Below are positions 1 to 38,156 of a stretch of 38,156 nt of DNA, piece by piece (the stretch's first letter is position 1; every line of letters begins with the position of its first letter). The notes under the pieces are model-generated. The model was not told where the DNA came from. It did not search any database and saw only the letters and a program-made list of their open reading frames with translations. The DNA is from Candidatus Nanohalarchaeota archaeon (lineage in GTDB: Archaea; EX4484-52; B79-G9). The stretch covers positions 1 to 38,156 of the forward strand of contig QMVA01000002.1 of assembly GCA_003660865.1 (NCBI GenBank). The letters run 5' to 3'. The translations under genes and the position numbers were made by a program.

Positions 1-102
1 AGAACCGTTTCTCTGTTTTCCATTTTTTACAATGTGAGGACTACCACAGTGCACACATTCACTTTTGTCCAATGGTCCAAATATATCCTTGAATAGATTC
101 AT
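1..102 (-). CDS. 5' fragment (34 codons, runs off the window) of a zinc-ribbon protein with a transposase-like N-terminus
   Basis: ATG at 102 sits 5 nt after a GGTGAT Shine-Dalgarno-like motif. The translation MNLFKDIFGPLDKSECVHCGSPHIVKNGKQRNGS has the CxxCGS..IVKNG pattern seen at IS-family transposase N-termini. Third codon positions are mixed and T-rich, unlike native minus-strand genes. Confidence 0.3.
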   Translation of the reverse strand, partial: MNLFKDIFGPLDKSECVHCGSPHIVKNGKQRNGS

Positions 103-273
103 GTTTCATCACCCTAAAACATTCTGTGCTAAACCACTATTTAAAGTTTATTGGGTGATTTCATTTTTTAGAAGTAGCATCACGTCTATTTTGGTGGGGT
201 ACCTGGATTTATTCGTTTTTTGGGTGGTTAAGGTTCTGTCTGGATATAATTTTCAGTGGCAATTGTTTGGACT

Positions 274-519
274 TCATGTGATGAATTTCTTCTTTAGTTC
301 TTCGTAAAAGGATATGTTTATAATTTCCATTTCTATATCGTTTATTGCTCTTAGTATTCTGTCAATATGTGTTTTTAATTCTATGTCTTTTATTTTGTCT
401 ACGTCATATTGTAATATGTTTGAATGCTGTACTGCGCTTTTTAGTATGGGTGTTTTATTGTTACTTGTGAGATGTTTATTTTCGGGGTTATATAGATGTG
501 ATATTGGTTGGCTCTGCAT
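274..519 (-). CDS. hypothetical small protein (81 aa, probably helical)
   Basis: ORF from the track with no recognisable motif. Codon third positions only partly follow the local A/C bias. A T7 run (minus strand, 525-531) lies immediately upstream, so independent expression is uncertain. Confidence 0.3.
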   Translation of the reverse strand: MQSQPISHLYNPENKHLTSNNKTPILKSAVQHSNILQYDVDKIKDIELKTHIDRILRAINDIEMEIINISFYEELKKKFIT

Positions 520-579
520 TGTAGAAAAAAAGATATGGGGCTATAGCGGGAGAATAATGGTCGGCTATAGTTCTTAATA

Positions 580-2064
580 TCAGAAATAAAATTTCCCTTC
601 CTTAATCATGTCGTCTACATATTGTTTGATCTCATTTTGGGACATGTCTGTTTTAGGATCAATCTTGTGTTTTGGGTTTATGGGAAATCCTTCTTTTGCT
701 GGTTCTTTATCTGTTCCTTGTAGTCTTTTTTCTTTTAGTATAGTCCTACTATGTTGTGTTAGCTTTCTTGCTACGTTTGCTGCATCTCTTATTTCTTCTT
801 CTGGTGTTCCTGCTGAAACCTTTTTGGGCGTTCTTGTGGCATATGCTTTTATTGAGTCCATAAGGTTTTCACGGATGGGCGGGTAATCTCTGGTTTTCTC
901 AGTATATGTTGTGGTTTTAAGTTCTCCGAGTTCGTCAGTTATGTCCTGACCTGTGTGTTCATCACTGGTCTCTGTTTTCTTGTATGGCTCGTCGGTTATT
1001 AGGTAATGTTTCAGTTCGTCATTATCTGTTATTGTTTCAGTAAGGTGTATGCGGAGTAGGTTGATGCGGCGGGTATCCCTGTTTTTCTTTTTCATTGATT
1101 TTTCGACTTCGTTCAGAAGTTTGTAGGTTAATGTGCCGTTCGAAATCTTGTCGAGAATAGCATCGCTTGTGTCATCTACTATGATTTTGTCTGTGTAGTC
1201 TTCGAGGAAGTATAGTTGGCGTTCTAATTCATCTGCTTGGGGGTTGTCTTCTTTGTATTTGTTTTTATCTTTTCTGTTCCAGGGGGTGATGCGATTTATG
1301 AGGTCGATATTGTCGTCGAGATATTTTTCGGCTGCTTCTAGTATTTTGTCGCTTGCTTCTTTTATTTCCTCTTGGGATTTTGTTTGTTCTTCACTGTATC
1401 CTGTTTTGTATTCCACATTGTCAGAGGCGGACAATAAATATGGTTTATTTACTAGTTCTTTCAGGATACCTTTTGGTATTTTGCCGTCTTTGATTTTTTC
1501 GACGACTTTGTCTCCGTAAGATTCTGTTTTGTAGTCTGGATTATTTAAGAGGTCTCCGAGTTCAAGTGCACTGTCGAGATTATTTTTGTTCTTTTTGATG
1601 TTGTAGATACTTATAAGTAGTAGAACTCCAGCTGTCGTTCTTAGAACCGGTGCCTCGTATGCTGAGGCTTCGTCGAGTATTCCTGTGTCGTTTGAGATAT
1701 TGTCCAGTGCTTCGCCAAGATGTGTGTGCCAGAAGTTGCCTGCGCCTGTTACATTATCTACTGTAGCAAAATAGTTTATTGCGTCCCCGTAAAGTGTGGC
1801 CGTGGTGGCTGCTACTGGTGCGGCAACGTTTTTTGCTTTGTGGGCTGCGCTCTTTACAGTGTCTTTAGCTTTGTAGATTATTTCTTCTTCAATATTGGTC
1901 ATATATTGACCTCTGTCGTTGAGAACGTCTTTGCTTGTTTTTGGTATGTCTGTGACACTTCTGTAAATGTCACCAATTTTTGAATCGCTTATTTTTGATT
2001 TTGCATTACTTATTTTTGATTTGAGATTACTGAACATTTGCATCACCGCAGTCATTGTTGTCAT
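580..2064 (-). CDS. hypothetical protein (494 aa) with one central hydrophobic segment and a K/E/D-rich C-terminal half
   Basis: Long ORF with a non-degenerate amino-acid sequence. N-terminal 7-aa tandem repeat (SNLKSKI/SNAKSKI, 21-nt DNA repeat near 1990-2035). Putative TM segment TTAGVLLLISIYNI. TATA-like CTTATATAC on the minus strand near 2080-2088. The start could be M1 (2064) or M4 (2055). No family recognised. Confidence 0.55.
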   Translation of the reverse strand: MTTMTAVMQMFSNLKSKISNAKSKISDSKIGDIYRSVTDIPKTSKDVLNDRGQYMTNIEEEIIYKAKDTVKSAAHKAKNVAAPVAATTATLYGDAINYFATVDNVTGAGNFWHTHLGEALDNISNDTGILDEASAYEAPVLRTTAGVLLLISIYNIKKNKNNLDSALELGDLLNNPDYKTESYGDKVVEKIKDGKIPKGILKELVNKPYLLSASDNVEYKTGYSEEQTKSQEEIKEASDKILEAAEKYLDDNIDLINRITPWNRKDKNKYKEDNPQADELERQLYFLEDYTDKIIVDDTSDAILDKISNGTLTYKLLNEVEKSMKKKNRDTRRINLLRIHLTETITDNDELKHYLITDEPYKKTETSDEHTGQDITDELGELKTTTYTEKTRDYPPIRENLMDSIKAYATRTPKKVSAGTPEEEIRDAANVARKLTQHSRTILKEKRLQGTDKEPAKEGFPINPKHKIDPKTDMSQNEIKQYVDDMIKEGKFYF

Positions 2065-2221
2065 TAGTTAGTAGTGAAAGTATATAAGCATTTCTATAGT
2101 GTAATATGGCTATTTGAGAAGATATTTATTCATCTGATTCTGTTTTTGGTGTTGATGACTTGCGGTTTGCTTTTTTTTTGTAGTCAATAAACCTGTATGT
2201 CTGTTGTATCTATAAGTTAGT

Positions 2222-2240
2222 AAAAAGATAAGAGAGAAGT
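2222..2240 (-). terminator. oligo-T / pyrimidine tract downstream of rps10
   Basis: A5 run on the plus strand (T5 on the minus strand) plus a purine-rich tract about 45 nt after the S10 stop. A-runs are otherwise rare on the plus strand. Confidence 0.35.
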
Positions 2241-2271
2241 CTATGGTGAAACAAATCGTCTTTCTGTTCTT

Positions 2272-2580
2272 TTATTCGCGCAGTTCTATTTCAATATTGA
2301 TTGAGTCAGGAACTTCTATGCGCATAATCTGCCTTAAAGCGCGCTCGTTTGTGCCGATGTCGATTACGCGCTTGTGGATGCGCATCTCCCACTTTTCGTA
2401 TGTTTCTGTGCCGTCGCCGGATGGAGCTTTTCTTGTGGTTATCTTTAGCTTTTTTGTCGGCAGTGGGATTGGTCCTGCTACGTTCGCTCCGAACTTGAGG
2501 GCTATCTGCTTTATTTGTTTTGCCAGTTCTTCAAGTTCCTGGTAGTTTGTGCTTGTTATTTTTACGCGTGCGGTTTGCAA
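2272..2580 (-). CDS. rps10: 30S ribosomal protein S10 (uS10)
   Basis: MQTARVKITSTN...GPIPLPTKKLKITTRKAPSGDGTETYEKWEMRIHKRVIDI is a typical archaeal S10. TTG start at 2580 is preceded by AGGTGA. The position after EF-1alpha is the conserved one. Confidence 0.95.
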   Translation of the reverse strand: MQTARVKITSTNYQELEELAKQIKQIALKFGANVAGPIPLPTKKLKITTRKAPSGDGTETYEKWEMRIHKRVIDIGTNERALRQIMRIEVPDSINIEIELRE

Positions 2581-2647
2581 TTTATTTCACCTATGGTATC
2601 ATACTTTAGTCTTTCATAAAGCATGTCAAAGTTACAGAATCTTTTGA

Positions 2648-3925
2648 TTATTTCTTTGCAACAAGGTCAATGCACATACCAGCTGCAATGGTCTGTCCCA
2701 TGTCTCTTATTGCGAATTTTGCGAGTTGAGGGATGTCTGATTGCTTTTCTATTACCATTGGCTTGGTTGGTTTGCATTTGATGATTGCTGCATCTCCAGG
2801 CTTGATGAAGTCAGGGTTTTCTTCCTTTGTCTCACCTGTAGTGGGGTCTATTTTTTTTAAGATATCTGTTATCTGACATGCAACGTGTGATGTGTGGATG
2901 TGGAATACCGGTGTGTATCCTTTTGTTATCACACTTGGATGTTGTAGTACTATTATCTGTGCTGTGAATTCGCCGCTTTGGTCAACTACTGTTGGCGGGT
3001 TGCTTGTGTGTCCACAGACTTCACCACGGGCGATGTCGCCTTTTCCGAGACCTCTTACGTTGAAGCCGATGTTGTCACCTGCTTCTCCTTTTGGTATCTC
3101 TTCGTGGTGCATTTCGATTTTCTTTACTTCGCCGGTTTTGCCGGATGGCATGAATACGAGTTTGTCGCCTGATTTGATTTCGCCGGTTTCTACGCGACCT
3201 ACAGGTACTGTTCCTACGCCGGTGATTGTGTAGACATCCTGTATGGGGAGTCTTAGCGGTTTTCCTGTTGGCTTTTCCGGCATAGGTAGGTCGTCGAGGG
3301 TTTCAAGCATTGTTTTTCCTTTGTACCATGTCATCTGTTCTGCTTTCTTTGCTACGTTTTCGCCTGTCCATGCTGATACGGGGATGTATGGTATGTCGTC
3401 TGTCTTGAAGCCGACGCTTTTCAGAAGCTTGATTATGTCGTCTTTTGCTTTGGTGTATGCTGATTCGTCGAAGTTTACTTCGTCCATCTTGTTTATTGCG
3501 ACGATGAGGCTTTTTACGCCAAGTGTTCTTATTAGAAAGACGTGCTCTTTGGTCTGCGGCATGACGCCGTCTTTTGCGCCAAGTACGAGGATCGCTGCGT
3601 CTGCCTGTGATGCGCCGGTTATCATGTTCTTTACGAAGTCCCTGTGGCCAGGAGCATCAATGATTGTGAAGTAGTATTTTGCTGTGTCGAATCTCTGGTG
3701 CATGACGTCAATTGTCACACCGCGTTCTCTTTCTTCTTTTACTGTGTCCATGAGGAACGCGAATTTGAATGATTCTTTTTTAAGCTCTTTTGCTTTTTCG
3801 TCTATCTTTTTCATCTGCTGTTCCGGGACGTTTCCTGTGTCCCATAACATTCTTCCGATTAATGTTGATTTTCCCTGGTCGACGTGACCGATTGTTACTA
3901 AATTCATGTGTGGTTTTTCTGCCAT
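2648..3925 (-). CDS. tuf: translation elongation factor EF-1alpha (aEF1A)
   Basis: [18 protein letters not shown] and NKMD GTPase motifs with full-length similarity. The ATG at 3925 is preceded by GAGGTG, so the track start at 3934 is a GTG lying inside the SD. Confidence 0.97.
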
Positions 3926-4142
3926 ATTTAACACCTCGCAATTATCATTTATTCTTCTTTATAATGATTGTTTTTATTTATGGTTTGTATGTTTATAGGG
4001 TTTAATATTGTTTATTATTGATTCTGAATTTTTTAAAGTTTTATGTGAAATGTGCTAGAGAATCGAGTGTGTTTGTTCTCTGTTGTCACATTATTGGTTT
4101 GATGGTTAAGTTTATAAATGTTGTGTATTGGTTATGTTTTCT

Positions 4143-6341
4143 TTATTGTTCCAGTTTTATTTGCGGGAGTTCTTCTTTCATGCCTTTTCTTTTCCTGATC
4201 TGAAGGACTATCTTGTTCTGGAGTTCTGTTGGTAGTTTTTCGTATACTATGTCTATGAGTGACTGGAATCCTCTGCCGCCTGTTGCGGATTTTATTGCGC
4301 CTTCAAAGCCGAACATCTCTGCGACAGGGAGTTTGGCTGTTATTATGCTCGTGCCCTGCTCTTCTTCCATATTCATGATTTGCCCGCGGCGGTTCTGGAC
4401 TTCTTTTACGACGTTGCCCATGTGTTCTTGGGGGCTATCTATTCTTAGTATCTGTTTTGGCTCGAAGAGGGATGCTTTGCCGTCGAGCATGCAGTTTTTG
4501 AGGGCGCTTTTGACTGCCGGGAGTACCTGCGCCGGTCCCCTATGTATTGCGTCTTCGTGGAGTTTTGCGTCCATGAGCATTACTTGCAGGCCGAATGTTG
4601 GTTCTGCTGCAAGGGGTCCTTCGTTGCATACTTCTTTGAATGACTGGATTATGAGTTCAATTACTTCGTTTAGCTGGACTATACCTCTTGTTAGGTTTAC
4701 GAGTATGTTGCCGTTCTGAATTGCGACTACTTTTTTTGCCTCGTCGCGGTTGTAGCCTGCGTCTGCGAGTGCGTTTGTTACTTCAAGCTGGTCTTGTTTC
4801 CTGATTTTTCCTTCTCTCATGTTGCCGGATATGAGTGTTTTTCTTACTTCGTCGGATACTGGTGCGACTTTCAGGTAGAATTTGTTGTGTTTGTTTGGTG
4901 TTTTTCCTTCGAATTGCTGTGATTCTTTTAGGAGGCCTTCTTTGTAGATTACTATGGGTTTTGAGACTGTGATCGGGATGCCTTTTTCTTTTATGTAGCG
5001 CTCGATTTTTGCTTCGATGTGGAGTTCGCCGAGACCGGATATGAGGGTTTCGCCTGTGTCTTCGGAGATTTTTACTCTTATTGTCGGGTCTTCTTTTGAG
5101 CGCATTCTCAGGATGTCGATGAGCTTTGAGAGGTCTTTGATGTTCTTTATTTCGATTGATTTTGTTACTACCGGTTCAAATATGTGTTTTATGTCTTCGA
5201 ATGGAGGTATCTCGTGGGATGCGCCGCTGAGTGTTTCGCCCGATGATGCCTGGTCGAGGCCTGTTACTGCGATGATGTTGCCGACACACATCTCGTGTAC
5301 CGGGATTCTTTTCGGGCCGTCGTATACTGATACTTGCTGGACGCGGGTGTCTGCCTGTACGTTTGAGAGGTAGACTGTTTGTCCGTCTTTTAGTGTGCCG
5401 CCGAATAGGCGCACTGTTGAGACGATGCCTGCGTTTGGGTCGCTGAGTACGTTTGTGACTACGCCGATAGGTTCGCCGGTTTTGTCTGAGTTCATCATTG
5501 CTTTTCCTTCTTTTGATTCTATGTCGCCGGTCCAGATTTTCGGGATCCTGTATTTCTGTGCTGTCTCTGGGTCTGGCAGGTGGTTTATTACCATGTCGAG
5601 TATTACTTCGTGAATTTTTGCTTTTTTTGCGAGTTCTTTTTCGTCGCCTTTGTTTGTGAGGTCAATTATGTCTTTGAATGATGTGCCTGTCTTTTTCATG
5701 TAGGGGATGGATGTTGCCCAGTTTTTGTAGGCTGAGCCGAATGCGACTTTGCCTGACTGGACGTCTACAAGCCATTCTTCTTTGAGTTCAGGGGGTGCGA
5801 ATTTTCTTATGAGATTGTTTATTGATGTGATGTGTTTTGTGAAGCGTTCAAGCATCTGTTCAGGGGTTAGCTGGAGCTCTTTTATGAGGCGGTCGACTTT
5901 GTTTATGAAGAGTACGGGTTTTACGCGCTCTTTTAAGGCCTGTCTCAGGACTGTTTCGGTCTGGGGCATTGCGCCTTCTACTGCGCATACGACTACGACT
6001 ACGCCGTCTACGGCTCTCATTGCGCGGGTGACGTCGCCACCGAAGTCTACGTGGCCGGGGGTGTCTATTAGGTTGATTAAGTAGTCGTCTCCGTGATGAT
6101 CATATACCATTGAGACGTTGCCTGAGTATATTGTTATGCCGCGTTCCTGTTCCTGCTTGTCGGCGTCCATTCTTACGGCTGTGCCTGCCAGTTCTTCTGA
6201 GAGCATGCCTGCGCCTGCCAGTAGGTTGTCTGTGAGGGTGGTTTTCCCGTGGTCGATGTGGGCTGCTATGCCTATGTTTCTGATTCTTTTCAGGTTTTTT
6301 ACTGCTTCTTTAATTCTTTCTGTTCTTGTTCCTTTTGCCAT
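4143..6341 (-). CDS. fusA: translation elongation factor EF-2 (aEF2)
   Basis: MAKGTRTERIKEAVKNLKRIRNIGIAAHIDHGKTTL, DTPGHVDF, NKVD, and the diphthamide-region motif HEDAIHRGPAQ. The ATG at 6341 follows AGGCGATGA. The 51 upstream codons in the track are K/Q-rich low complexity and are treated as leader. Confidence 0.96.
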   Translation of the reverse strand: MAKGTRTERIKEAVKNLKRIRNIGIAAHIDHGKTTLTDNLLAGAGMLSEELAGTAVRMDADKQEQERGITIYSGNVSMVYDHHGDDYLINLIDTPGHVDFGGDVTRAMRAVDGVVVVVCAVEGAMPQTETVLRQALKERVKPVLFINKVDRLIKELQLTPEQMLERFTKHITSINNLIRKFAPPELKEEWLVDVQSGKVAFGSAYKNWATSIPYMKKTGTSFKDIIDLTNKGDEKELAKKAKIHEVILDMVINHLPDPETAQKYRIPKIWTGDIESKEGKAMMNSDKTGEPIGVVTNVLSDPNAGIVSTVRLFGGTLKDGQTVYLSNVQADTRVQQVSVYDGPKRIPVHEMCVGNIIAVTGLDQASSGETLSGASHEIPPFEDIKHIFEPVVTKSIEIKNIKDLSKLIDILRMRSKEDPTIRVKISEDTGETLISGLGELHIEAKIERYIKEKGIPITVSKPIVIYKEGLLKESQQFEGKTPNKHNKFYLKVAPVSDEVRKTLISGNMREGKIRKQDQLEVTNALADAGYNRDEAKKVVAIQNGNILVNLTRGIVQLNEVIELIIQSFKEVCNEGPLAAEPTFGLQVMLMDAKLHEDAIHRGPAQVLPAVKSALKNCMLDGKASLFEPKQILRIDSPQEHMGNVVKEVQNRRGQIMNMEEEQGTSIITAKLPVAEMFGFEGAIKSATGGRGFQSLIDIVYEKLPTELQNKIVLQIRKRKGMKEELPQIKLEQ

Positions 6342-6391
6342 TTCATCGCCTTTTGAGTATATTTTTAGTGGATGATTGATTGTTTGCGGGA

Positions 6392-6401
6392 GTTTATATG
6401 T
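6392..6401 (-). promoter_or_regulatory. TATA-like box (minus strand ACATATAAAC) for EF-2
   Basis: About 55 nt upstream of the EF-2 ATG, which leaves a roughly 30-nt SD-containing leader. It resembles the recurrent ACATTTATA motif upstream of other minus-strand genes. Confidence 0.35.
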
Positions 6402-6588
6402 TTTTTTGTGCGCCCTGTTTTGTATTCTTTGTTTTGGATTGTGTGTTTTGTATTTTTGTTGTTGTGATTTGCTTGTGGTGCTTCTTAAGAACATAGTCTT
6501 TCTGTGCGAAGTTTTATAAACGTTTTTGTTTTTGGTTGTTAGGATTTTTGAGTATTATCTTATGTCATATTCAAAGTTAGAAGTGGTT

Positions 6589-7209
6589 TTAATCTTGGGA
6601 TGAAATTATTTTGTTGTATATCTGGTCTAATTTATGATGTGCCTCATATAATATTTTTTGTAATTCTCCTACTGTTTTTCTTGAATCCGGAAGGGCTGTT
6701 TCTAAATCTTGTAAGGTTCCAAGTTCCATACTGCCTCGACTGAATATGAATTTATCTGGATTTAATCTATTAATATCAGTTTCAAGGAGACTATCTCTTT
6801 CGTTAGGCCTAGCATAAGAGTATGGATTCTCTCCTTTTTGTGCATAGTCCATTCTTGTTTTTACTTTGTCTATTTGTTGGGATGCATCTTCTTCGGTCCA
6901 TGTCGTTAGTTCTTCCATTGATATTTCGAGAAATTCCTTTATTGAGTTAAATGTGTGGTCTATTTCGCCATAATAAATATGTCCGTTGTTATAGTATGTC
7001 TCAATGAGTGATTGTTCTATTTTTGTTACGTTCTGATTGTCGATTGTTTCGCCTAATTTTTGTATGTCTTTTACTGCGTATTCAAAATCCGCTTTGTCAG
7101 GACTTACATAGCCTCTTAAGTAAGATATTGACCAGTACACGTTGCCTATTTGGTTTTCTATTTTGGATACTAGCGCTAAATCTTGGTCTGTTAGATCTAT
7201 TTTGACCAC
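6589..7209 (-). CDS. hypothetical protein (206 aa), compositionally atypical
   Basis: ORF with a GTG start at 7209 about 27 nt from a palindromic TATA (AATATTATATAT, 7232-7243). Many GAT/TAT/ATT/AAT codons break the A/C third-position rule of neighbouring minus-strand genes. No motif recognised. Confidence 0.5.
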   Translation of the reverse strand: MVKIDLTDQDLALVSKIENQIGNVYWSISYLRGYVSPDKADFEYAVKDIQKLGETIDNQNVTKIEQSLIETYYNNGHIYYGEIDHTFNSIKEFLEISMEELTTWTEEDASQQIDKVKTRMDYAQKGENPYSYARPNERDSLLETDINRLNPDKFIFSRGSMELGTLQDLETALPDSRKTVGELQKILYEAHHKLDQIYNKIISSQD

Positions 7210-7272
7210 TAGGATGGGGTATATGTTGTAAATATTATATATCTTTCTGTATGTGCTTGTTTTTGGTGATTT

Positions 7273-7707: not shown

Positions 7708-7708
7708 T

Positions 7709-7906: not shown

Positions 7907-7927
7907 ATAGAGGTATGATTTTTGAGT

Positions 7928-9239: not shown

Positions 9240-9253
9240 TTTTTGTCATCTGT

Positions 9254-10453: not shown

Positions 10454-10506
10454 GTGTTGTCTTTTGGGGGTTTATCTTTATTTGTTTTTGCGAGGGTTGT
10501 AGTAGA

Positions 10507-10514: not shown

Positions 10515-10538
10515 TTTTTGGGTTTATATTGGTCTTTT

Positions 10539-11033
10539 ATGGGTGGAGTTTCTGTTGTTTCGGGGGATATTTGCGCGCTTAATGTTGATGCTATTGTTAA
10601 TCCTGCCAACTCTTCAGGTTCGATGGGCGGCGGGGTTGCGCTTACTATCAGGAGGAAAGGGGGGCAGATTATTGAGGATGAGGCGATGGCGCATGCGCCT
10701 GTTGCTGTCGGGTCTGCTGTTTTGACTACTGCGGGTCGGTTGCCTTGCCGGTTTGTGATTCATGCGCCTACTATGGTTGGTCCTGCTGAGAGGGTTGGTG
10801 TTGGGAATGTGCGTCGGGCTGTTTTGGCGGCGCTTGAGTTGGCTCGCGAGAAGGGGATTTTTGAGGTTGCGTTTCCGGGAATGGGTACGGGTGTCGGCGG
10901 GGTGGATAAGGGGGAGGCTGCGCATGTGATGGTTTGTGAGATTCTTGATTTTGTTTCGAAGAATGAGGGCTTCCGGGTGGTTTTAGTTGGTTTTGACGAG
11001 GAGTTGTATGAGTGTTTTTTGGGTGAGCTGTAG
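10539..11033 (+). CDS. macro domain protein (ADP-ribose binding / deacylase type, Af1521-like)
   Basis: GDICALNVDAIVNPANSSGSMGGGVA...VIHAPT...AFPGMGTGVGG are the canonical macro-domain motifs. G/T third positions fit a plus-strand gene. Confidence 0.85.
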   Translation: MGGVSVVSGDICALNVDAIVNPANSSGSMGGGVALTIRRKGGQIIEDEAMAHAPVAVGSAVLTTAGRLPCRFVIHAPTMVGPAERVGVGNVRRAVLAALELAREKGIFEVAFPGMGTGVGGVDKGEAAHVMVCEILDFVSKNEGFRVVLVGFDEELYECFLGEL

Positions 11034-13907: not shown

Positions 13908-13970
13908 CTGTTTTTTTGGTGTGTAACCTATAAAAAAGGGTTTTTATGGCTTTGGCTATAGTGTTGATGT

Positions 13971-14000
13971 AAAAAGTAAAAAATGAGAAAGAGTAAAAAA
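13971..14000 (-). terminator. triple oligo-T terminator after rps7
   Basis: Plus-strand A5, A6 and A6 runs (T5/T6/T6 on the minus strand) lie 20-50 nt after the S7 stop. Such A-runs are otherwise scarce on the plus strand. Confidence 0.5.
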
Positions 14001-14018: not shown

Positions 14019-14678
14019 TTATCTTGCGCCTGTGGCTTCTTTGTCTCTTCTTGTCTTTTCCTGTATTGCGAAGCTTGCAGGATCGCTTTTGTAGGCTGAG
14101 AGTATTTCGTTTGAGAGTCCTTGTGCGGCGCTTTTTTTCTTTTTTACGGTTCTTTGGTATGAGCCTTGCGCGATGTGTTTCAGTGCAAGGTCTACTCTTC
14201 TTTGGGGAGCTGTTACTACGGATTCTCTTGCGAATATGCCGCCTCTCTGGTATGTCAGGACTTCTTCTAGCGGGGCGGAGTTTTCTATAGCTCTTATGAG
14301 AACTTCAACTGGGTTTTTTTCGGTTTTTTCTTCGATTATGTTGAATGCCTCTATTAGTATTTTTGTTGTTTTTGTTGTGGTGCCGACGTTGTGGCCGCTT
14401 GAGAATTTGTGTTTTTTGCCGCGGTGACCTGCGACGAACATCTTGTTTATGAGGCGTTCTGTGATGTTTAGTTTTGATTTGTGGAACTGATTTTTTGCGT
14501 GTCTTCCGCCGCTTTTTGGGACTATTACTGGGCTTAGGTTTATGTAGTTTACGAGTCCGGGGTCTGAGACTTTTATGTTTTCTGTGCTCCATGTGTTGAA
14601 TAGTTTTATTTTAGAGGATTTTTGTTTTGTTTCTGCTATGTGCTTTATTTCAGAGGGTTTTTGTTTTGTTTCTGTCAT
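14019..14678 (-). CDS. rps7: 30S ribosomal protein S7 (uS7) with a duplicated N-terminal extension
   Basis: KLFNTWSTENIKVSDPGLVNYINL...GGRHAKNQFHKSKLNITERLINK...RAIENSAPLEEV...RRVDLALKHI is archaeal S7. A GATGAT SD-like motif precedes the ATG. Confidence 0.95.
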   Translation of the reverse strand: MTETKQKPSEIKHIAETKQKSSKIKLFNTWSTENIKVSDPGLVNYINLSPVIVPKSGGRHAKNQFHKSKLNITERLINKMFVAGHRGKKHKFSSGHNVGTTTKTTKILIEAFNIIEEKTEKNPVEVLIRAIENSAPLEEVLTYQRGGIFARESVVTAPQRRVDLALKHIAQGSYQRTVKKKKSAAQGLSNEILSAYKSDPASFAIQEKTRRDKEATGAR

Positions 14679-14687
14679 GTTATCATC

Positions 14688-15116
14688 TTATTTGCTTGGT
14701 CTTTTTTTTGTGCCTTTTATGAGTTCGTTCAGTGATATACCGTTTACCTGTGTAACTTTCCATTTTACTGATGGAAGCGATCCTTTTGGACCGGATTCTG
14801 AGCCGCCGATTCCTTCAAGTAGGACTTCGTCGTGTTCCTGAACGTGGTTGATGGCACCTGTCAGAGGGCAGAATGCGGTGATTTGTTTACTGTTTTTGAT
14901 TAGCTGTACTCTTACGCATTTTAGCATGCCTGAGTGGGGCTGTTTTGCTTCAAGCTGCCTTTTTTCAAGAACTATGCCTTTTGCCTGTGCTGAGCCTTCC
15001 AGAGGATCTGTTTTTTCTTTGAGGCGCAGGGTCTTTCTTGCGAAGTCTATAGATTTCCATCTTTTCTTGAGCCTGTTTTTTTTGAGGTTTCTTCCTGCGT
15101 ATAGTCCACCTGACAT
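14688..15116 (-). CDS. rps12: 30S ribosomal protein S12 (uS12)
   Basis: DPLEGSAQAKGIVLEKRQLEAKQPHSGMLKCVRVQLIKN.KQITAFCP..GAINHVQEHDEVLLEG is canonical. GGTGA lies 6 nt before the ATG. Confidence 0.96.
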   Translation of the reverse strand: MSGGLYAGRNLKKNRLKKRWKSIDFARKTLRLKEKTDPLEGSAQAKGIVLEKRQLEAKQPHSGMLKCVRVQLIKNSKQITAFCPLTGAINHVQEHDEVLLEGIGGSESGPKGSLPSVKWKVTQVNGISLNELIKGTKKRPSK

Positions 15117-15129
15117 TTTTGTTTCACCG

Positions 15130-15549
15130 TTATTCTATTTTTATGTTATCAATATTGAATTGTCTTTTTAAAAAGATTTTGATTATGTTTATGTTTTTGC
15201 CGCCTCTGCCTATTAGCAGACCTTTGTTTCTTTTTTCTGTTTCGATGGTTATTGTCTTTTGTTGGTTGTTTTCGATTAGGGTTATTTTTTTTGCCGGGAT
15301 AGGCAGCATGTTTTTTGTGAATTCTTCTGCGTTCTCTGTGTGCTTGTATATTATTATGTTCTGGTTCATTTTTTTTTGGAGTTTTTTTATTTCTATGCCG
15401 TTTTTGCCGATCAGGTTTTTGAAGTTGTTTGTTTTTACTACGAAATATAGTGTGTTATTTTCGTTTGCGTAGTCAACAACGTGTGTTCTTGTGATTTTTT
15501 CGAATATTGTGATGTTTATTATGTCATCGTTTGTGTATTTTATTGGCAT
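15130..15549 (-). CDS. nusA: archaeal NusA-like KH-domain protein
   Basis: Two KH GXXG motifs (IGKNGIEIKKL, IGRGGKNINII). Conserved position between L30e and S12. Start moved to the ATG at 15549, downstream of the L30e stop. Confidence 0.85.
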   Translation of the reverse strand: MPIKYTNDDIINITIFEKITRTHVVDYANENNTLYFVVKTNNFKNLIGKNGIEIKKLQKKMNQNIIIYKHTENAEEFTKNMLPIPAKKITLIENNQQKTITIETEKRNKGLLIGRGGKNINIIKIFLKRQFNIDNIKIE

Positions 15550-15575
15550 TAGATTCACGCATGATGGTAGCTGTT

Positions 15576-15839
15576 TTATTTTTTGAGGCCTAGTACTACA
15601 ATTGAAAATGGCTTTCTTGCGCATGCGCCTAATTCGATGCTTGTGCCGTTGAATAAGTGTATTTTTGATTTTGAGAGTTTTGCTGCGTTTTCTATGTCGC
15701 GCCGGATGTTTTTTGGGCAGTTTGTGGCGATTATGGCGGAGTCCAGTTTGTTCTGATTCAGGTATTTTAGGGTTGTGTCTGTGCCGATTGTTATTTTGCC
15801 TGAGTCTATTGCGTTTTTGATTGTTTTTGTTATGTCCAT
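15576..15839 (-). CDS. rpl30e: 50S ribosomal protein L30e (eL30)
   Basis: KNAIDSGKITIGTDTTLKYL...AIIATNCP.....IE..A.LSK..I..F.GTS.ELG.ACRKPF is typical L30e. The ATG at 15839 follows GGTG; an alternative ATG is at 15851. Confidence 0.9.
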   Translation of the reverse strand: MDITKTIKNAIDSGKITIGTDTTLKYLNQNKLDSAIIATNCPKNIRRDIENAAKLSKSKIHLFNGTSIELGACARKPFSIVVLGLKK

Positions 15840-15861
15840 TGTTAGCACCATTTATGTTTTT

Positions 15862-19482: not shown

Positions 19483-19496
19483 TTGTTGCACCTAGG

Positions 19497-21287: not shown

Positions 21288-22806
21288 GCTGTTCAACTTT
21301 TGATTGTTTGTTTTCCTGTTCGATTTCTACTCCGAGGCTTTTCAGGGTGCTTAATACTTTTGTTTTGTCTGCTTCGTTTGAGGGTATTGTGACCTGTGCG
21401 CCCAGTGCGAGGAAGTTTCTCAGGCCGATGCTTTGGCCTTCCGGGGTTCTTACGGCACATAGGCGACCCCATTGGGTTGCATGGAGTTCTCTTGCTTCAA
21501 AGTGTTCCTGAGTGGATGATAGTGGGGATACTACGCTTCTCAAATGGCTTATGGTTCTTACGAAGTTTGAGCGTTCGAGGCGCTGACATACGCCGGTTTT
21601 GCCGCCGACCCAGTTGCCTGTTGCCATTGCTCTCATGATTTGTTTTGTGAGGACGTCTGAGACTACTACGCTTTGGAGTTTTAGTAGTTTTCTGCCGCGC
21701 TTCATCATTTTCTGGTAGTTGTATTGAAGGCGTGCAATCAGGCCCCAACGACCCATGATGATTGATCTGAAGAGTATTTCGAGGAGGTCTCCCGGCATTT
21801 TGAGCCTCTTGTTTGAGTAGTGGTCTATGTCGTCTTCTTTGATTTTGCCTTTGTGGAGAAGGATTAGTTTGCGTATGACCAGACCAAGGAATTTTGCTTT
21901 TTTTATTGAGTCTTTTGGCTCGTTTCCGAGGTGTGCTAGCAGGTAATTGTTTAGTAGTTGGGTGGCACGTTCTTCTCGTTGCTCTTTCATGCGTACTTTC
22001 ATTTTTTTGCCGATGTAGTCGAGGGCTTCTTCCCTGTTTGCAATCTGTGTGTCGTAGATGTTGATGTATACGTCTTCTATGTCTTCTTCTTCTGTGCCGA
22101 TGGCTTCTATGACTTCTTTGTCTGTTTCGAGGCCGAGGGCTTTCATTAGTACGATTATGGGTATTGGTGTTTTTACGAGGTTTGCGAATTTTGCTGTTAT
22201 GATGCCTTCCGGGCATCGCTCGAATACGTGGCGCTGGATATAGCCGCTTTTTTCGCAGTTTATTCTTGCTGTGATTTCGTCTGCTTTTTTCTGGAGTATT
22301 AGTTTGTTTGGTGCTATTTCTTCTGATAATACGATTACTCTTTCTGTGCCGTTTACTATGAAGTAGCCGCCGGGGTCGTATGGGTCTTCACCGGCTTTTA
22401 TTAGTTCGGTTCTTGTCATTTTAGAGAGTGGGCAGAGGCAGGATTTTACCATGATTGGTATTTCGCCGATTTCTACTGTTTCTGTGTCGTGTTCTCTTTC
22501 TTCGAATACTGGGGTCATTTCTACGAATATAGGGGTTGAGTATGTGAGGTTTCTTAGGCGTGTCTCGGAGGGATATATTGCTCTTACGGAGCCGTCTGCT
22601 TCGTTTATTTGCGCTCTCTCGATGCTTACTTTCCCGAGTTTGATTGTGAGTTCTTCGCCGGTGGGAAGTTCGATTGTTATTTTAGCTATTTCATCTACTG
22701 TTTTCTGGAGGCGTCTTTCGACGAAGTCGTTGTATGAATCGATTTGGTGGGCTATGAATCCTTTGTTTTTCGAGTATTCGTTGAGGTAGCTTTTTGCGAT
22801 GTCCAT
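21268..22806 (-). CDS. rpoB2: RNA polymerase subunit B'' (N-terminal part of split B)
   Basis: HQIDSYNDFVERRLQ, GYFIVNGTERVIV, HLRSVVSPLS...EARELHATQWGRLCAVRTPEGQSIGL. It ends with TGA at 21268 inside the B' 5' end. Confidence 0.93.
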   Translation of the reverse strand: MDIAKSYLNEYSKNKGFIAHQIDSYNDFVERRLQKTVDEIAKITIELPTGEELTIKLGKVSIERAQINEADGSVRAIYPSETRLRNLTYSTPIFVEMTPVFEEREHDTETVEIGEIPIMVKSCLCPLSKMTRTELIKAGEDPYDPGGYFIVNGTERVIVLSEEIAPNKLILQKKADEITARINCEKSGYIQRHVFERCPEGIITAKFANLVKTPIPIIVLMKALGLETDKEVIEAIGTEEEDIEDVYINIYDTQIANREEALDYIGKKMKVRMKEQREERATQLLNNYLLAHLGNEPKDSIKKAKFLGLVIRKLILLHKGKIKEDDIDHYSNKRLKMPGDLLEILFRSIIMGRWGLIARLQYNYQKMMKRGRKLLKLQSVVVSDVLTKQIMRAMATGNWVGGKTGVCQRLERSNFVRTISHLRSVVSPLSSTQEHFEARELHATQWGRLCAVRTPEGQSIGLRNFLALGAQVTIPSNEADKTKVLSTLKSLGVEIEQENKQSKVEQHDRNLY

Positions 22807-22818
22807 GGTTAACACGTT

Positions 22819-23058
22819 TTATTCCGGGATTACGATCCGATAGTATTTTGTTTTTCCTGCGGTGGGGCTGTCTCTGGTTATTTCGATGATGTCGCCTGTT
22901 TTTGCGCCTATTATTTCGGCGATCGGGTCTGTGTCGAGTATTTTTGGGAGTTGGTCGGCTGTTATGTCAAGTTCTTTTAGAATTTTTTGTGATTCGCTTT
23001 TCATGAGGATTTTGTGTTCTGGAACTAGTTCATGTGTAAATATGTCTTTTTCGCTCAT
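22819..23058 (-). CDS. rpoH: RNA polymerase subunit H (Rpb5 homologue)
   Basis: HELVPEHKILMKSESQKILKELDITADQLPKILDTDPIAEIIGAKTGDIIEITRDSPTAG...YYRIV is canonical RpoH. The ATG at 23058 follows GGTGA. Confidence 0.92.
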   Translation of the reverse strand: MSEKDIFTHELVPEHKILMKSESQKILKELDITADQLPKILDTDPIAEIIGAKTGDIIEITRDSPTAGKTKYYRIVIPE

Positions 23059-23081
23059 GTTGTTTTTCACCAAAGGTTTTG

Positions 23082-23240
23082 TGGTGGGCCCGACGGGAAT
23101 TTCACGGACGTTTTATGTTCGTTTTGAACCCGCGACACCCGGGTATCTTCTACAGATTCCGGTGCATTAACCGTCTGGTTAAAAGCTTCACCCTCGTCGA
23201 TTAAGAGCCCGGTGCTCTAGCCAGACTGAGCTACGGGCCC
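23082..23240 (-). tRNA. tRNA-Lys(CUU) with two introns (57 nt after position 37, 24 nt in the T-loop) and encoded CCA
   Basis: Exons read GGGCCCG-TA-GCTC-AGTCTGGCTA-GAGC-A-CCGGG-CTCTTA[57 nt]A-CCCGG-GTGTC-GCGGG-TTCAAA[24 nt]T-CCCGT-CGGGCCC-A-CCA. Folded by hand; all four stems pair (one G-U). Confidence 0.8.
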
Positions 23241-23547: not shown

Positions 23548-23548
23548 T

Positions 23549-24889: not shown

Positions 24890-25023
24890 TTTTGTGTTTT
24901 GTGTTTGTTTTGTATGGTGTGGTTATCATTGTTGTTATCTAAATATGGCTGAGGGGGTTATTATAATTTTTTGTTGGTTGGGTGGTGGTGGGTGGTGTTT
25001 GGAGAAAGGGGTGGTAGTATGAA

Positions 25024-25096
25024 AGCCCGGGGCGAGATTTGAACACGCGATCTCTGCCTTACCAAGGCAACGCTCTACCAGCTGAGCCACCCGGGC
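25024..25096 (-). tRNA. tRNA-Thr(GGU)
   Basis: GCCCGGG-TG-GCTC-AGCTGGTA-GAGC-G-TTGCC-TTGGTAA-GGCAG-AGATC-GCGTG-TTCAAAT-CTCGC-CCCGGGC-T. One U-U mismatch in the T stem. No encoded CCA. Confidence 0.85.
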
Positions 25097-25282
25097 TTTT
25101 TAATATTGATGATGTTTGTAATGTTTAGATAATGTTTATAATTGTTTGTGATGTGGTTGTAATTTGTTGTTTGTAATGTTTGAGGTGTTATTTTTTTAAG
25201 TTTAATGAGGGGTTTGAGTTGTGTGCTTGTGTTTGTATCTTTAGTTATCTTTGGTTTTTAGATATCGTTGTCTTTTTTTCTT

Positions 25283-31121: not shown

Positions 31122-31143
31122 TTTGGAGGGTATAGTGTTGGTT

Positions 31144-32091
31144 ATGATTGAGATTTGGACTGAGAAGTATCGGCCGAAGACGCTTTCTGAGGTTGTGGGG
31201 CATGAGGCGATTGTTGAGCGCCTGAAGGCTTTTATCAAGGCGAAGTCGGTTCCTAATATGCTTTTTGCAGGTACTGCGGGGGTGGGGAAGACTACTTGCG
31301 CTATTGCGCTTGCGAAGGAGTTGTATGGGGATTCATGGTCGAGGAATTTTATGGAGACTAATGCGTCTGATGAGCGTGGCATCCTGGTGGTTAGGTCGAA
31401 GATTAAGGATTTTGCGCGTATCAAACCGCTTGGGGCGGAGTTTAAGATTATTTTTCTTGATGAGAGTGATGCTTTGACTACTGAGGCGCAGCAGGCGCTT
31501 CGCAGGACTATGGAAAAGTATACGCATTCGACGCGCTTTATTTTGTCGTGCAATTATTCTTCGAAACTTATTGCGCCGATCCAGAGCCGGTGTGCTGTTT
31601 TCAGGTTCGGGCCGGGGAGTGATGAGGCGATTTCGAGATATGTTCGGAGGGTTGCCAAGGCTGAGGGGCTTGATGTTACTAAGGATGGGATGGCTGCGGT
31701 TGTTGCTGTGTCTCTCGGTGATTTCAGGAAGGCTACTAATGTGCTTCAGTCGGTTTCTATTCTTTCGAAGAAGGTTGATGAGAAGTCTGTGTATGAGGTT
31801 GCGGCTACTTTGCATCCAAAGGAGGTCAAGGAGGTGCTTAATCTTGCGCTTAGCGGTAAGTTTCTGGATTCCAGAAAGAGGCTGTATGATTTGATGATCA
31901 ATCGCGGGCTTTCGGGGCTTGATGTGATTCGCGCGATTCATCGTGAGATTCTTTCTGTTGATGTGGATGACAGGTGTAAGGCGCGCCTGATTGATAAGCT
32001 TGGGGAGTATGAGTTTCGGATTGTCGAGGGCGGGCAGGAGGATTTGCAGATTGAGGCTTTTTTGGCGCAGTTGGTTGCGTTGAAGGGTTGA
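31144..32091 (+). CDS. rfcS: replication factor C small subunit
   Basis: WTEKYRPKTLSEVVGHE, FAGTAGVGKTT, IIFLDESDALT, SRC motif (IQSRCAVFRF). No intein. Confidence 0.93.
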   Translation: MIEIWTEKYRPKTLSEVVGHEAIVERLKAFIKAKSVPNMLFAGTAGVGKTTCAIALAKELYGDSWSRNFMETNASDERGILVVRSKIKDFARIKPLGAEFKIIFLDESDALTTEAQQALRRTMEKYTHSTRFILSCNYSSKLIAPIQSRCAVFRFGPGSDEAISRYVRRVAKAEGLDVTKDGMAAVVAVSLGDFRKATNVLQSVSILSKKVDEKSVYEVAATLHPKEVKEVLNLALSGKFLDSRKRLYDLMINRGLSGLDVIRAIHREILSVDVDDRCKARLIDKLGEYEFRIVEGGQEDLQIEAFLAQLVALKG

Positions 32092-36638: not shown

Positions 36639-36663
36639 AGGTTCTTTTTTGGGCAGGGTAAGA

Positions 36664-36671
36664 TATATAAA
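36664..36671 (-). promoter_or_regulatory. TATA box (minus strand ACA-TTTATATA) for rnhB
   Basis: Centre lies about 29 nt upstream of the ATG at 36638 with no SD, implying a leaderless mRNA. It shares the ACATTTATA motif also seen at 4113-4121, 23296-23304 and 23507-23515. Confidence 0.45.
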
Positions 36672-36706
36672 TGTTTGTAGTGTTAGGGATTATATCTCTT
36701 TTTTAA

Positions 36707-36813
36707 AGCGAGGTGGAGCAGCCTGGAGTGCTCGTTGGGCTCATATGATGGCATAAGTTTTGTGTGTTGTCTGTGTTACCCAAAGGTCGATGGTTCAAAT
36801 CCATCCCTCGCTA
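36707..36813 (+). tRNA. initiator tRNA-Met(CAU) with a 32-nt intron at 37/38
   Basis: AGCGAGG-TG-GAGC-AGCCTGGAGT-GCTC-G-TTGGG-CTCATA[32 nt, 36746-36777]A-CCCAA-AGGTC-GATGG-TTCAAAT-CCATC-CCTCGCT-A. The A1:U72 pair and three G:C pairs at the bottom of the anticodon stem are archaeal initiator hallmarks. No encoded CCA. Confidence 0.85.
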
Positions 36814-36851
36814 TTCTAAATTATATAAAGGTGGATGGGTAATTAGTGTGT

Positions 36852-37055
36852 ATGAAAGGGTCGTTGTTCAGTTTTAATGTTTTTGTGGCTGTGTTAGTTC
36901 TTTTACCGTCGGTTGTGCTTTTGTATCACTTTAGTGCTGAGATTAATGAGGTCTGTGATATGAGTAGTAATGTTGTGTTGTATACTATTGTTCTTAGTTG
37001 TGTTGCCCTGCTTTCTTTGATGACTATTCTTAAGGAACTTTTGAGTTTTGAGTGA
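36852..37055 (+). CDS. hypothetical small 2-TM protein (67 aa)
   Basis: The TATA TTATATAA (36821-36828) is centred 27-28 nt upstream of the ATG (leaderless geometry). Two hydrophobic segments. No similarity recognised, and the G/T richness alone could create such an ORF. Confidence 0.4.
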   Translation: MKGSLFSFNVFVAVLVLLPSVVLLYHFSAEINEVCDMSSNVVLYTIVLSCVALLSLMTILKELLSFE

Positions 37056-37062
37056 GTTTAAG

Positions 37063-37070
37063 TTATATTA
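37063..37070 (+). promoter_or_regulatory. TATA box (TTATATTA) for orc1/cdc6
   Basis: Centre lies about 27 nt upstream of the ATG at 37094, implying a leaderless mRNA. Confidence 0.45.
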
Positions 37071-37093
37071 ATTTATGCTCTTAATTAAAGGTT

Positions 37094-38119
37094 ATGTCTG
37101 ATTTGTTTGATGTTGAGTCTTCTGTTATTAGGAGTGAGGAGCCGCTTACTGATGTGTTTGCGCCTACACGGCTTCTTCACAGGGAAGGGCAGAGGGATTA
37201 TCTTGCGTCGTGTATGAAGCCGGTGGTTGTCGGGAGGATGCCGAGGAATGTGTTTTTGTTTGGACCTACTGGTGTGGGTAAGACTTCTCTTGTTCTTTGG
37301 ATGTTTGATGAACTTTTGAGCTATACTGATAACGTGCGGACGTGCTATGTCAATTGCTGGAAGAGCGGGTCTACTCATGCTGTTCTTTCGAAGATTGTGA
37401 GTGATCTTAGGATTTTTTCTAACCCGCGCAGGCAGACTAAGGAGCTGCTTGAGGATATTGAGGGGAGTCTTAAGAAGAGTGGCAAGAAGCTGATTGTTGC
37501 TTTGGATGAGGTTGACAGGCTTGAGAGTTATGATGTGCTTTATGATCTTTGCCGGAGCGGGTGCGGGGTTGTGTGTATATCGAATGATGAGCATGCGCTT
37601 GCTAATGTTGATGTGAGGATTAAGAGTTCGCTTTCTTTGGAGTGGCTTGAGTTTAAGGAGTATTCTGCTGATGAGATGTATGATATTCTTTCTGACAGGG
37701 CGAATCTTGCGTTTGCGCCGGGGGCGATAAGTGAGACTGTGCTTAGGATTGCGGCAGTGCAGGCGGGCGGAGATGCGCGGGTGGGGCTTGAGATACTTCG
37801 CAAGGCTGCGCTTTTCTCGGATGATGCGGGGGTTTCTGTGATTGGGAAGGAGCAGGTGATTAGGGCGCATAAGGATGCGGTTTCTGTTAAGGTGCGACAG
37901 ATTGTTGAGTCTTTAGGGGAGTATCAGAGGATGCTTTTTTTGATTGTTGAGAAGGCGAGGACTGTGAAGTCGTCTGAGTTGTGGAGTGCTTTTTCTGAAA
38001 AGACGGGGGGCAAGGTGTCTGAGAGGAGTTATAGGAATTATATGGATAAGCTTGTTACACTGAAGCTTGTTCAGGCTAGCGGGGATGTCCGGTGGAGAGA
38101 GTATAGTACAATATTATAA
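37094..38119 (+). CDS. cdc6: Orc1/Cdc6 replication initiator (341 aa, compact)
   Basis: HREGQRDYL, Walker A FGPTGVGKTS, Walker B LIVALDEVD, GDARVGLEILRKA (sensor 2 region), and a C-terminal winged helix. Confidence 0.9.
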   Translation: MSDLFDVESSVIRSEEPLTDVFAPTRLLHREGQRDYLASCMKPVVVGRMPRNVFLFGPTGVGKTSLVLWMFDELLSYTDNVRTCYVNCWKSGSTHAVLSKIVSDLRIFSNPRRQTKELLEDIEGSLKKSGKKLIVALDEVDRLESYDVLYDLCRSGCGVVCISNDEHALANVDVRIKSSLSLEWLEFKEYSADEMYDILSDRANLAFAPGAISETVLRIAAVQAGGDARVGLEILRKAALFSDDAGVSVIGKEQVIRAHKDAVSVKVRQIVESLGEYQRMLFLIVEKARTVKSSELWSAFSEKTGGKVSERSYRNYMDKLVTLKLVQASGDVRWREYSTIL

Positions 38120-38156
38120 ATGGTTGAGTTACAGCCTTGTAAAGGGCTGGTGATTA

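Follow-up and report, generated by a model that had tools for sequence, protein, structure and literature searches.

The question raised by this locus is which process can make one strand of an archaeal chromosome rich in G and T over tens of kilobases, whichever of the two strands is coding. The stretch of DNA analysed here, 38,156 nucleotides (nt) from a Candidatus Nanohalarchaeota archaeon (contig QMVA01000002.1, in the following called the window), corresponds to nearly all of ena:ERZ27227322:k141_214384 (38,222 nt) and could not be extended further. A preliminary description of the window, made from its letters alone, had proposed a bias that belongs to the strand and not to the genes. 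Our data agree with that view, and the explanation that we consider probable is a heritable, genome-wide mutational strand asymmetry of the clade, tied to replication and preferably with a polarity inverted relative to bacteria.

Strand asymmetry of the window

The plus strand contains 15635 T (41%), 10012 G (26%), 6474 A (17%) and 6035 C (16%), and over the whole window this gives a G+T fraction of 0.672, a GC skew of +0.248 and an AT skew of -0.414, or an excess of 104 G and 240 T per 1000 nt. The AT skew (-0.41) outweighs the GC skew (+0.25), so that A/T as well as G/C is affected. One skew sign is kept through every 2-kb window, and the minimum G+T fraction of any 200-nt window of the plus strand is 0.535, while 47 control loci from other archaea and from bacteria, all of them without skew, have G+T fractions of 0.43-0.53. 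The pattern (KNN)x40 finds 20 matches in the window against 0 expected. The hand count given in the preliminary description for nt 9241-9300 (T34 G12 C8 A6) was exact on recount, and its statement that the plus strand is T+G-rich irrespective of the coding strand is borne out both by the windowed skews and by the fourfold-degenerate sites. The skewed state of the plus strand (heavy, G+T-rich) and of the minus strand (light, A+C-rich) is confirmed.

About 28 of the 34 protein genes lie on the minus strand. The fourfold sites of 24 of these genes have the coding-strand composition A.49, C.36, G.07 and T.08 (n = 4011), and those of three plus-strand genes (Macro, RFC and Orc1) have G.41, T.48, A.03 and C.07 (n = 411). 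A+C in the minus-strand genes and G+T in the plus-strand genes are therefore both far above 0.5. Expressed on the plus strand, the fourfold G+T fraction is 0.85 from the minus-strand and 0.90 from the plus-strand genes, the values of single genes range from 0.72 to 0.94 with all 28 of 28 genes obeying the rule, and the freely mutable codon sites overall are about 86% G+T. Codon usage on the coding strand is mirrored between the two sets of genes, with AAA:AAG for Lys at 888:96 in minus-strand genes versus 3:48 in plus-strand genes, GAA:GAG for Glu at 608:61 versus 4:58, and GAC:GAT for Asp at 445:68 versus 4:43; Ile is encoded by ATA and ATC on the minus strand and by ATT on the plus strand. 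The earlier third-position counts were likewise reproduced, as 62 of the first 67 codons of rfcS (start called at 31135) end in G or T and exactly 59 of the 69 non-ATG codons counted in rpoA end in A or C.

Because the embedded plus-strand genes show these mirror-image codons, both transcription coupling and a genome-wide codon preference are excluded as the source of the bias, as had been argued in the preliminary description. The plus-strand genes, i.e. Macro, RFC and Orc1 in the window and EamA and Carb_kinase in a related contig (L026), in which the genes downstream of orc1 alternate in orientation, share the absolute polarity of their minus-strand neighbours. The bias tracks strand identity and not gene orientation. 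It is for this reason that codon usage is mirrored between genes of opposite strands and that their products drift apart in amino-acid composition.

Sequence constraint and protein composition

The bias is unequal among classes of sites. At the first, second and third codon positions of minus-strand genes the coding-strand A+C fraction is 0.60, 0.58 and 0.83, respectively, the intergenic G+T fraction of the plus strand is 0.70, and the G+T fractions of three tRNA genes, of which two presumably contain introns, are 0.43-0.60. Constrained sequence, that is codon positions 1 and 2 and the tRNA genes, resists the bias. The proteins are reached all the same, in line with the earlier claim. The ratio of the residues G, V, C, W, F and L to the residues K, N, T, H, Q and P is 1.5-3.1 in three plus-strand products and 0.29-1.45 in 24 minus-strand products. 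The comparison with relatives that had been proposed as a check was run on Orc1 and EF-2 with Leu omitted from the ratio, and it showed the clade to be shifted within each family: Orc1 has 0.80-1.49 in the clade versus 0.68 +/- 0.09 in 114 homologues outside it, and EF-2 moves modestly in the opposite way (0.57-0.74 versus 0.72 +/- 0.05).

These observations bear on whether selection instead of mutation could have produced the asymmetry, either selection for transcripts or single strands that do not pair with themselves (RNAs of A and C only, or of G and U only) or translational selection on codons. Such an explanation would accommodate the core gene RtcB, which is far more skewed than the accessory genes around it, and A+C-rich and G+T-rich single strands would both be devoid of Watson-Crick self-complementarity. 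However, the codons are mirrored between the strands, so that no single tRNA-adapted set is favoured, and the intergenic DNA is skewed too. In addition, the genes with the highest expression, S12 and EF-1alpha, rank with the least skewed ones, and even conserved proteins follow the bias in their amino-acid composition. Taken together, we regard selection as a very improbable cause.

Two further claims of the preliminary description held in part. Stop codons, said to be rare in all frames, make up 4.4% of the six-frame codons compared with 6.0% in symmetric sequence of the same GC content; they are rarer, but only by about 26%, and the claim was overstated. Runs of at least five identical bases number 9 for A and 390 for T on the plus strand, and five of the nine A-runs lie 19-82 nt past the ends of two minus-strand genes; the idea that A-runs mark minus-strand terminators fits these five and was too sweeping for the set as a whole. 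The window has 71 open reading frames (ORFs) of at least 100 aa versus about 34 real genes, and many of the others are long antisense "shadow" ORFs, the translations of which are of low complexity and rich either in K, N, H and P or in F, L, V and C.

Occurrence in related archaea

The window belongs to a clade of DPANN archaea from marine sediments. The closest named relatives by EF-2 are Aenigmatarchaeota and "Nanohaloarchaeota"-labelled metagenome-assembled genomes (MAGs) of the DPANN archaea, from cold-seep and hydrothermal sediments. Equal skew, with equal polarity relative to orthologous genes, was found in all contigs fetched from the MAGs of seven GTDB species representatives (JAFCBW01, DAOVYR01, DAOWAN01, JAUVEK01, CBDUVR01, JAIWAJ01 and JBDRKP01), and further ENA, NCBI and Logan contigs are likewise skewed, so that the trait is documented in at least ten independent assemblies, for which differing assembly programs had been used. 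An ORF-based survey that covered all the loci fetched showed one absolute polarity for both gene orientations in the skewed ones. In seven of seven species and in one Logan assembly the main ribosomal-protein operon is encoded by the A+C-rich strand, with G+T fractions of 0.27-0.38 across up to 20 kb. The unlinked RtcB gene, on a 110-kb scaffold, has an A+C fraction of 0.90 at fourfold sites. This scaffold (L079; ena:ERZ23498525 scaffold_57) is the longest clade contig met, and the locus examined spans its positions 2316-21437; a 1649-aa ORF and T2SSE/T2SSF genes (pilus or archaellum-type) near RtcB are skewed moderately (0.57-0.73).

The trait extends to a relative whose EF-2 is 79% identical. 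A sister lineage (L023), with a 71% identical EF-2, is without skew, its fourfold plus-strand G+T fraction being 0.54 in plus ORFs and 0.58 in minus ORFs. A different DPANN lineage with a 66% identical EF-2 (L080; positions 1-17597 of ena:ERZ23498525 scaffold_289) has an asymmetry that is intermediate and independent of orientation (fourfold plus-strand G+T 0.66 in both ORF orientations) and consists mainly of T over A. Moderate asymmetry (0.36 and 0.33) was also seen in the Nanoarchaeota bin KR13_S3.mb.5 (L040). One of the seven species representatives, SFP3_US_04_2 (JAIWAJ01; loci L003, L017, L030 and L084; coverage about 2-3x), is labelled "Methanosarcinales archaeon" in GenBank; its contigs are 80-95% identical to contigs of the DPANN clade and have the same skew, and the bin is mislabelled or contaminated.

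The distribution also bears on a technical origin. An artefact from chemical conversion, DNA damage or misassembly would share with our data the C-to-T signature of deamination, as would transcription-coupled asymmetry, and nothing else. The sign of the skew is unaffected by gene orientation, and the skew is concentrated at synonymous sites in genes whose proteins are intact and give strong Pfam matches. It recurs among the independent assemblies, and unskewed islands lie within the same contigs. We give transcription-coupled or technical explanations hardly any weight. A bisulfite or DNA-damage artefact in particular is excluded on the arithmetic of the base counts and because the bias is concentrated at synonymous sites.

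Islands without skew

Several segments within or next to skewed DNA lack the asymmetry. A 6.4-kb type I restriction-modification island (L015, DAOWAN010000031.1, 10589-16972) has a GC content of 0.32 and no strand skew, and is for these two reasons probably a recent horizontal acquisition. Its insertion site, 1.5 kb downstream of orc1, adjoins tRNA-like sequences, and the genes of the island were called as HsdM, HsdS, a 486-aa ORF and HsdR by eye from the translations, without a Pfam check. Several assemblies, the contig of the window included, break a few hundred nt past orc1. In L022 (JAEMOI010004344.1, 734-2302) a DDE transposase gene (DUF772/DDE_Tnp_1_6) has symmetric fourfold composition; this insertion sequence adjoins the strongly skewed EF-2 gene of the 79% relative. 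A 1059-aa ORF in L027 is normal-looking inside a skewed contig. A further island, with CBS and Na/H-exchanger/TrkA genes, was found at 10960-13536 in L027, about 2000-4830 in L029 and 1640-4077 in L030; it is common to two subclades at 83-90% identity and absent from JBDRKP and from the organism of SRR28272308. Recently imported DNA has yet to acquire the skew.

Proposed origin and history of the bias

The window differs from its closest relative by 6.6% overall and by 13% at fourfold sites, and 118 of the 153 exchanges between keto and amino bases at these sites (77%) are transitions. The asymmetry is a strand-specific mutational bias made up mostly of transitions. On the plus strand we infer these exchanges to be C-to-T and A-to-G, which are the classical directions of deamination.

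The comparisons show that the clade has a heritable, genome-wide mutational asymmetry between its DNA strands. On one strand, amino bases (A and C) have given way to keto bases (G and T), mainly through transitions of the C-to-T and A-to-G type, and neutral sites are at about 86-90% G+T. We favour, as the probable explanation, that this asymmetry is tied to replication. The cause may be unequal damage, misincorporation or repair on the template of the leading strand compared with that of the lagging strand. The link to replication is suggested because a bias that is uniform along an entire strand for tens of kilobases, whatever the direction of transcription, is expected from no other process. 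In the preferred form of this explanation the A+C-rich strand would be the leading-strand sequence, so that the operons for RNA polymerase (RNAP), elongation factors (EF) and ribosomal proteins would be transcribed co-directionally with the fork, and the skew polarity would be the inverse of the bacterial one.

Some 30 contigs of the clade, which together hold about 110 kb of non-redundant sequence, contained no polarity switch, a null result that is uninformative because about two switches are expected per genome of about 1 Mb, and thus about 0.2 by chance in 110 kb. Around orc1 there is none in the 37 kb upstream nor, in relatives, up to about 20 kb downstream (4-10 kb past orc1 in four species and then a further 8-10 kb), and the ribosomal-protein and RtcB loci showed none either. 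The run of plus-strand genes that follows orc1 is local, and minus-strand genes resume further on. Within the window the skew shows a weak trend with position, with Spearman coefficients of 0.33 for GC skew (p = 0.08) and 0.38 for TA skew (p = 0.05), which are confounded with expression and cover 38 kb.

The history of the skew was analysed at several loci. Parsimony with a distant outgroup is biased by the skewed composition and was replaced by counts with a close outgroup, four-taxon maximum likelihood and a rooted pattern count, and these three methods give no single consistent history.

Several observations weigh against the explanation that we favour. Stationarity is rejected both by a four-taxon general Markov model with free root frequencies (12 rates; twice the log-likelihood difference 45.8, 3 degrees of freedom) and by a two-state model (35.4). 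The CBS and Na/H-exchanger island is unskewed (fourfold G+T 0.48-0.56) despite a divergence like that of its flanks (0.19-0.37 at fourfold sites versus 0.18-0.34), and its recent substitutions favour amino-to-keto changes just 1.55-fold per site. In L080 it is the G+T-rich strand that carries most genes, among them those for EF-2, EF-1alpha, S10 and RtcB, and the relation of gene orientation to polarity is therefore not fixed in the group. Finally, no switch has been seen, so that the link to replication is one that we infer, and orc1 is neither at a switch nor, in the sequence around it, accompanied by ORB-like repeats.

The first of these observations would fit a skew that is largely historical, a "fossil" of an ancestral extreme phase brought about, for example, by loss of a deamination-repair or template-uracil-sensing function, with mutation now being more symmetric. 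The rejected stationarity is in line with this, as is the second-subclade (group-2) stem, which with JBDRKP as root has 8 amino-to-keto and 24 keto-to-amino changes and hence a net loss, and the terminal branches of AB175, CS1788 and CS321 have an excess of keto-to-amino changes of about 2:1. A shared island that is unskewed although as diverged as its flanks, together with its 1.55-fold bias, means that the driving bias may be weaker now than at build-up, and the accessory neighbours of RtcB, with their far lower skew, point the same way. On the other hand, the stem of the subclade that contains the window (group 1) has 20 amino-to-keto versus 10 keto-to-amino changes under the same root, a net gain after the subclades had split, the window's own terminal branch is balanced, and the per-site rates of resident genes still favour amino-to-keto changes 2- to 7-fold. 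Consensus errors in low-coverage MAGs inflate the apparent keto-to-amino changes, i.e. the losses of skew, and the islands could have spread late between species. A mainly historical skew is in our opinion possible but rather doubtful, and it overlaps with the explanation that we favour since it concerns the timing of the bias and not the strand. In some lineages the driving bias may act in episodes or be losing strength; alternatively, islands may be passed between species at a late stage. These comparisons show the skew to be a trait of the clade, non-stationary and differing from one subclade to the next.

The second group of observations concerns the polarity. If the canonical, mitochondria-like polarity applied, the G+T-rich plus strand would have the leading-strand sequence, being the displaced strand or lagging-strand template that is left single-stranded, and replication would be strongly asymmetric, for example by strand displacement, unidirectionally or with very slow lagging-strand synthesis. 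Most genes, those of the RNAP and ribosomal-protein operons included, would then be transcribed head-on to the fork, as in vertebrate mitochondrial DNA (mtDNA). The direction of the skew, T over A and G over C, matches that of the bacterial leading strand and of the mitochondrial H strand, its magnitude is similar to that of mtDNA, and, as there, the sense strand is A+C-rich in the majority of genes. The roughly 110 kb without a switch, with the surroundings of orc1 included, would also fit, as would L080, in which the EF genes and most others lie on the G+T-rich strand in the bacterial arrangement. A G/C disparity of a single polarity along the whole chromosome has been described in some bacteria of the candidate phyla radiation (CPR), for which unidirectional replication was proposed (PMC7143001). 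However, the missing switch is as uninformative here as stated above, and the positional trend of the skew is weak (rho 0.33-0.38, p 0.05-0.08). Under the canonical polarity, moreover, the major operons with high expression would all be head-on in each species of the clade, an arrangement for which we know of no precedent in a cellular chromosome. We consider the canonical polarity less likely than the inverted one, although its probability is still appreciable.

By the bacterial convention the G+T-rich strand should carry most genes, and it does not, as about 28 of 34 are on the A+C-rich strand. This strand also holds the RNAP, EF and main ribosomal-protein operons, and it does so throughout the species of the clade. 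In Haloferax volcanii an origin is reported to coincide with a maximum of the third-position cumulative GC skew, which is the opposite of bacteria (PMC12999951). Since the highly expressed operons seen are all on the A+C-rich strand, and in view of this skew maximum, an inverted relation of skew to fork, which the preliminary description had itself named as an alternative, is favoured, being at least as likely as its inference that the plus strand is the leading strand with about four-fifths of the genes head-on.

Other features of the window

The identities of the protein genes given here come from Pfam matches and those of the tRNA genes from Rfam and ARAGORN. The genes for S10, EF-1alpha and EF-2 (2272..6341, minus strand; Pfam and ORF) have fourfold plus-strand G+T fractions of 0.79 for EF-1alpha and 0.89 for EF-2. 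The mechanically called EF-2 ORF (4143-6494, minus strand) has 783 aa compared with 732 aa in homologues, and its start is overcalled. A membrane-protein ORF at 7273-7707 (plus strand), of which 7303-7697 is conserved at the DNA level in relatives, is followed by a HicB-like antitoxin ORF at 7670-7906 (plus strand) that was assigned by eye from its translation and not by Pfam. The Macro-domain gene (10518..11033, plus strand; Pfam E = 1e-28) has the fourfold composition G.36, T.53, A.03 and C.08. Together with the RFC small subunit gene (31135..32091, plus strand; Pfam; fourfold G+T 0.89), a small ORF and the short Orc1/Cdc6 gene of 341 aa (37094..38119, plus strand; Pfam), on both sides of which the skew is unswitched, these make up the plus-strand set. 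Further minus-strand genes encode NIL-ferredoxin, HcyBio, MOSC, MatE, UbiA, ABC1, a transglutaminase-domain protein, a Yip1-domain protein, a rhomboid protein and RNase HII. Start sites are also overcalled in the ABC1 and AAA_18 ORFs, which share 190 nt (26923-27112).

The long operon at 14019..23073 (minus strand; Pfam, and an ORF for RpoH) comprises S7, S12, NusA-KH, a fused RpoA, RpoB', RpoB'' and RpoH, with fourfold plus-strand G+T fractions of 0.72-0.88. RpoA is a single 1209-aa ORF (15862-19491, minus strand) with the Rpb1 domains 1-5, that is A' and A'' fused, and RpoB is in two minus-strand ORFs, B'' at 21268-22815 and B' at 19497-21296. In most archaea it is rpoA that is split, and the combination of a fused RpoA with a split RpoB looks unusual. 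A tandem duplication of 39 nt (14605-14680, copies 89% identical) at the 5' end of S7 either adds a 13-residue N-terminal repeat to the protein or signals a mis-set start codon. A cluster of four A-runs at 13932..14000, which are T-runs in the minus-strand transcript, lies 19-82 nt downstream of the S7 stop codon. Oligo-T is a signal for transcription termination in archaea, and for this reason the cluster is probably the terminator that ends the RNAP-S12-S7 operon.

A tRNA gene at 23085..23240 (minus strand, 156 nt; G+T 0.51) coincides with the sole low-skew interval of the window, 23045-23319. Another at 36707..36813 (plus strand, 107 nt; G+T 0.60) is weakly skewed. Both were matched by Rfam and missed by ARAGORN, and in view of their lengths we presume that they contain introns, in keeping with the clade's possession of RtcB and archease. 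A tRNA-Thr(GGT) gene (25023..25097, minus strand; G+T 0.43) is unskewed. Between RNase HII and orc1 (36659-37074) there are three copies of a 16-nt AT-rich motif (TAAGATATATAAATGT and two variants), one beside the start of RNase HII, one after the plus-strand tRNA gene and before the small ORF, and one upstream of orc1; these are probably TATA/BRE promoters. No dispersed repeats were found in the window.

Comparison with known systems and significance

Vertebrate mtDNA is known for the asymmetry of its H and L strands, for strand-displacement replication and for deamination of the H strand while it is single-stranded. Like the mitochondrial genome, the window has a G+T-rich and an A+C-rich strand near saturation at fourfold sites, mostly A+C-rich sense strands, strand-dependent codons and amino acids and a dominance of transitions. 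Unlike it, the window is part of a cellular archaeal chromosome, presumably of about 1 Mb, with genes for Orc1, RFC and RNase HII, and it has no clear gradient along its length. In Borrelia burgdorferi and other strongly skewed bacteria, codon usage and proteome composition are also strand-specific, with GC and AT skews of the type described by Lobry. The likeness lies in a G+T-rich and an A+C-rich strand that set codons and amino acids independently of the direction of transcription. The differences are that the magnitude is far larger here, that the A+C-rich strand carries most genes, unlike in bacteria, and that no origin-linked switch has been seen so far in about 110 kb of clade DNA.

According to SkewDB figures quoted in PMC12999951, the mean excess of G per 1000 nt is 7-8 for archaea and 23-25 for bacteria. 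The CPR Microgenomates order UBA1400 (Kadnikov et al. 2020, PMC7143001) has 29.8% C and 15.0% G with A and T about equal, and unidirectional replication was proposed for it. The clade studied here resembles it as an ultra-small uncultured group with a very strong strand disparity next to a neighbouring family without it, and differs in that A/T is skewed as well and that about 80% of the genes are on one strand, while those of UBA1400 are evenly split. Haloferax volcanii (Paravel et al. 2026, PMC12999951) provides an archaeal precedent for a polarity opposite to bacteria, as the preferred reading requires, although its skew is weak. The survey of reference archaeal genomes in the same paper attributed their skews mostly to gene orientation and found little capacity for strand-specific mutation or repair; the present clade is a counter-example of mitochondrial magnitude. 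Our literature search found no report of this asymmetry for the clade or for any archaeal chromosome, which does not prove that there is none. What is new is the host, an archaeal chromosome, the very large magnitude, the position of most genes and of the major operons on the A+C-rich strand, and a trait that varies within one clade beside an unskewed sister.

The bias has practical consequences. Being dependent on orientation, it misleads gene finders based on codon usage, predictors of expression, phylogenies based on composition and trees of marker proteins, and shadow ORFs abound. Conversely, horizontally acquired DNA in these genomes is labelled and dated by the skew, which acts as an intrinsic clock.

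It is tempting to speculate, though we put this forward only tentatively and with some doubt, that replication or repair distinguishes between the strands in a manner undescribed for cellular genomes, giving an asymmetry of mitochondrial grade. Possible variants are a highly asymmetric replication, by strand displacement or unidirectional, with most essential operons head-on, or a division of labour between leading and lagging strand in which the deaminated bases uracil and hypoxanthine are tolerated on one template strand only, with a polarity inverted relative to bacteria. The trait could under this reading switch on, intensify and relax within one family-level clade. The clade is a natural experiment on the origin of strand asymmetry in a cell with a eukaryote-like replication machinery, and as skewed and unskewed sisters occur in cold-seep MAG sets (CSMAG isolates), a comparison of their polymerase and repair genes could reveal the factor responsible.

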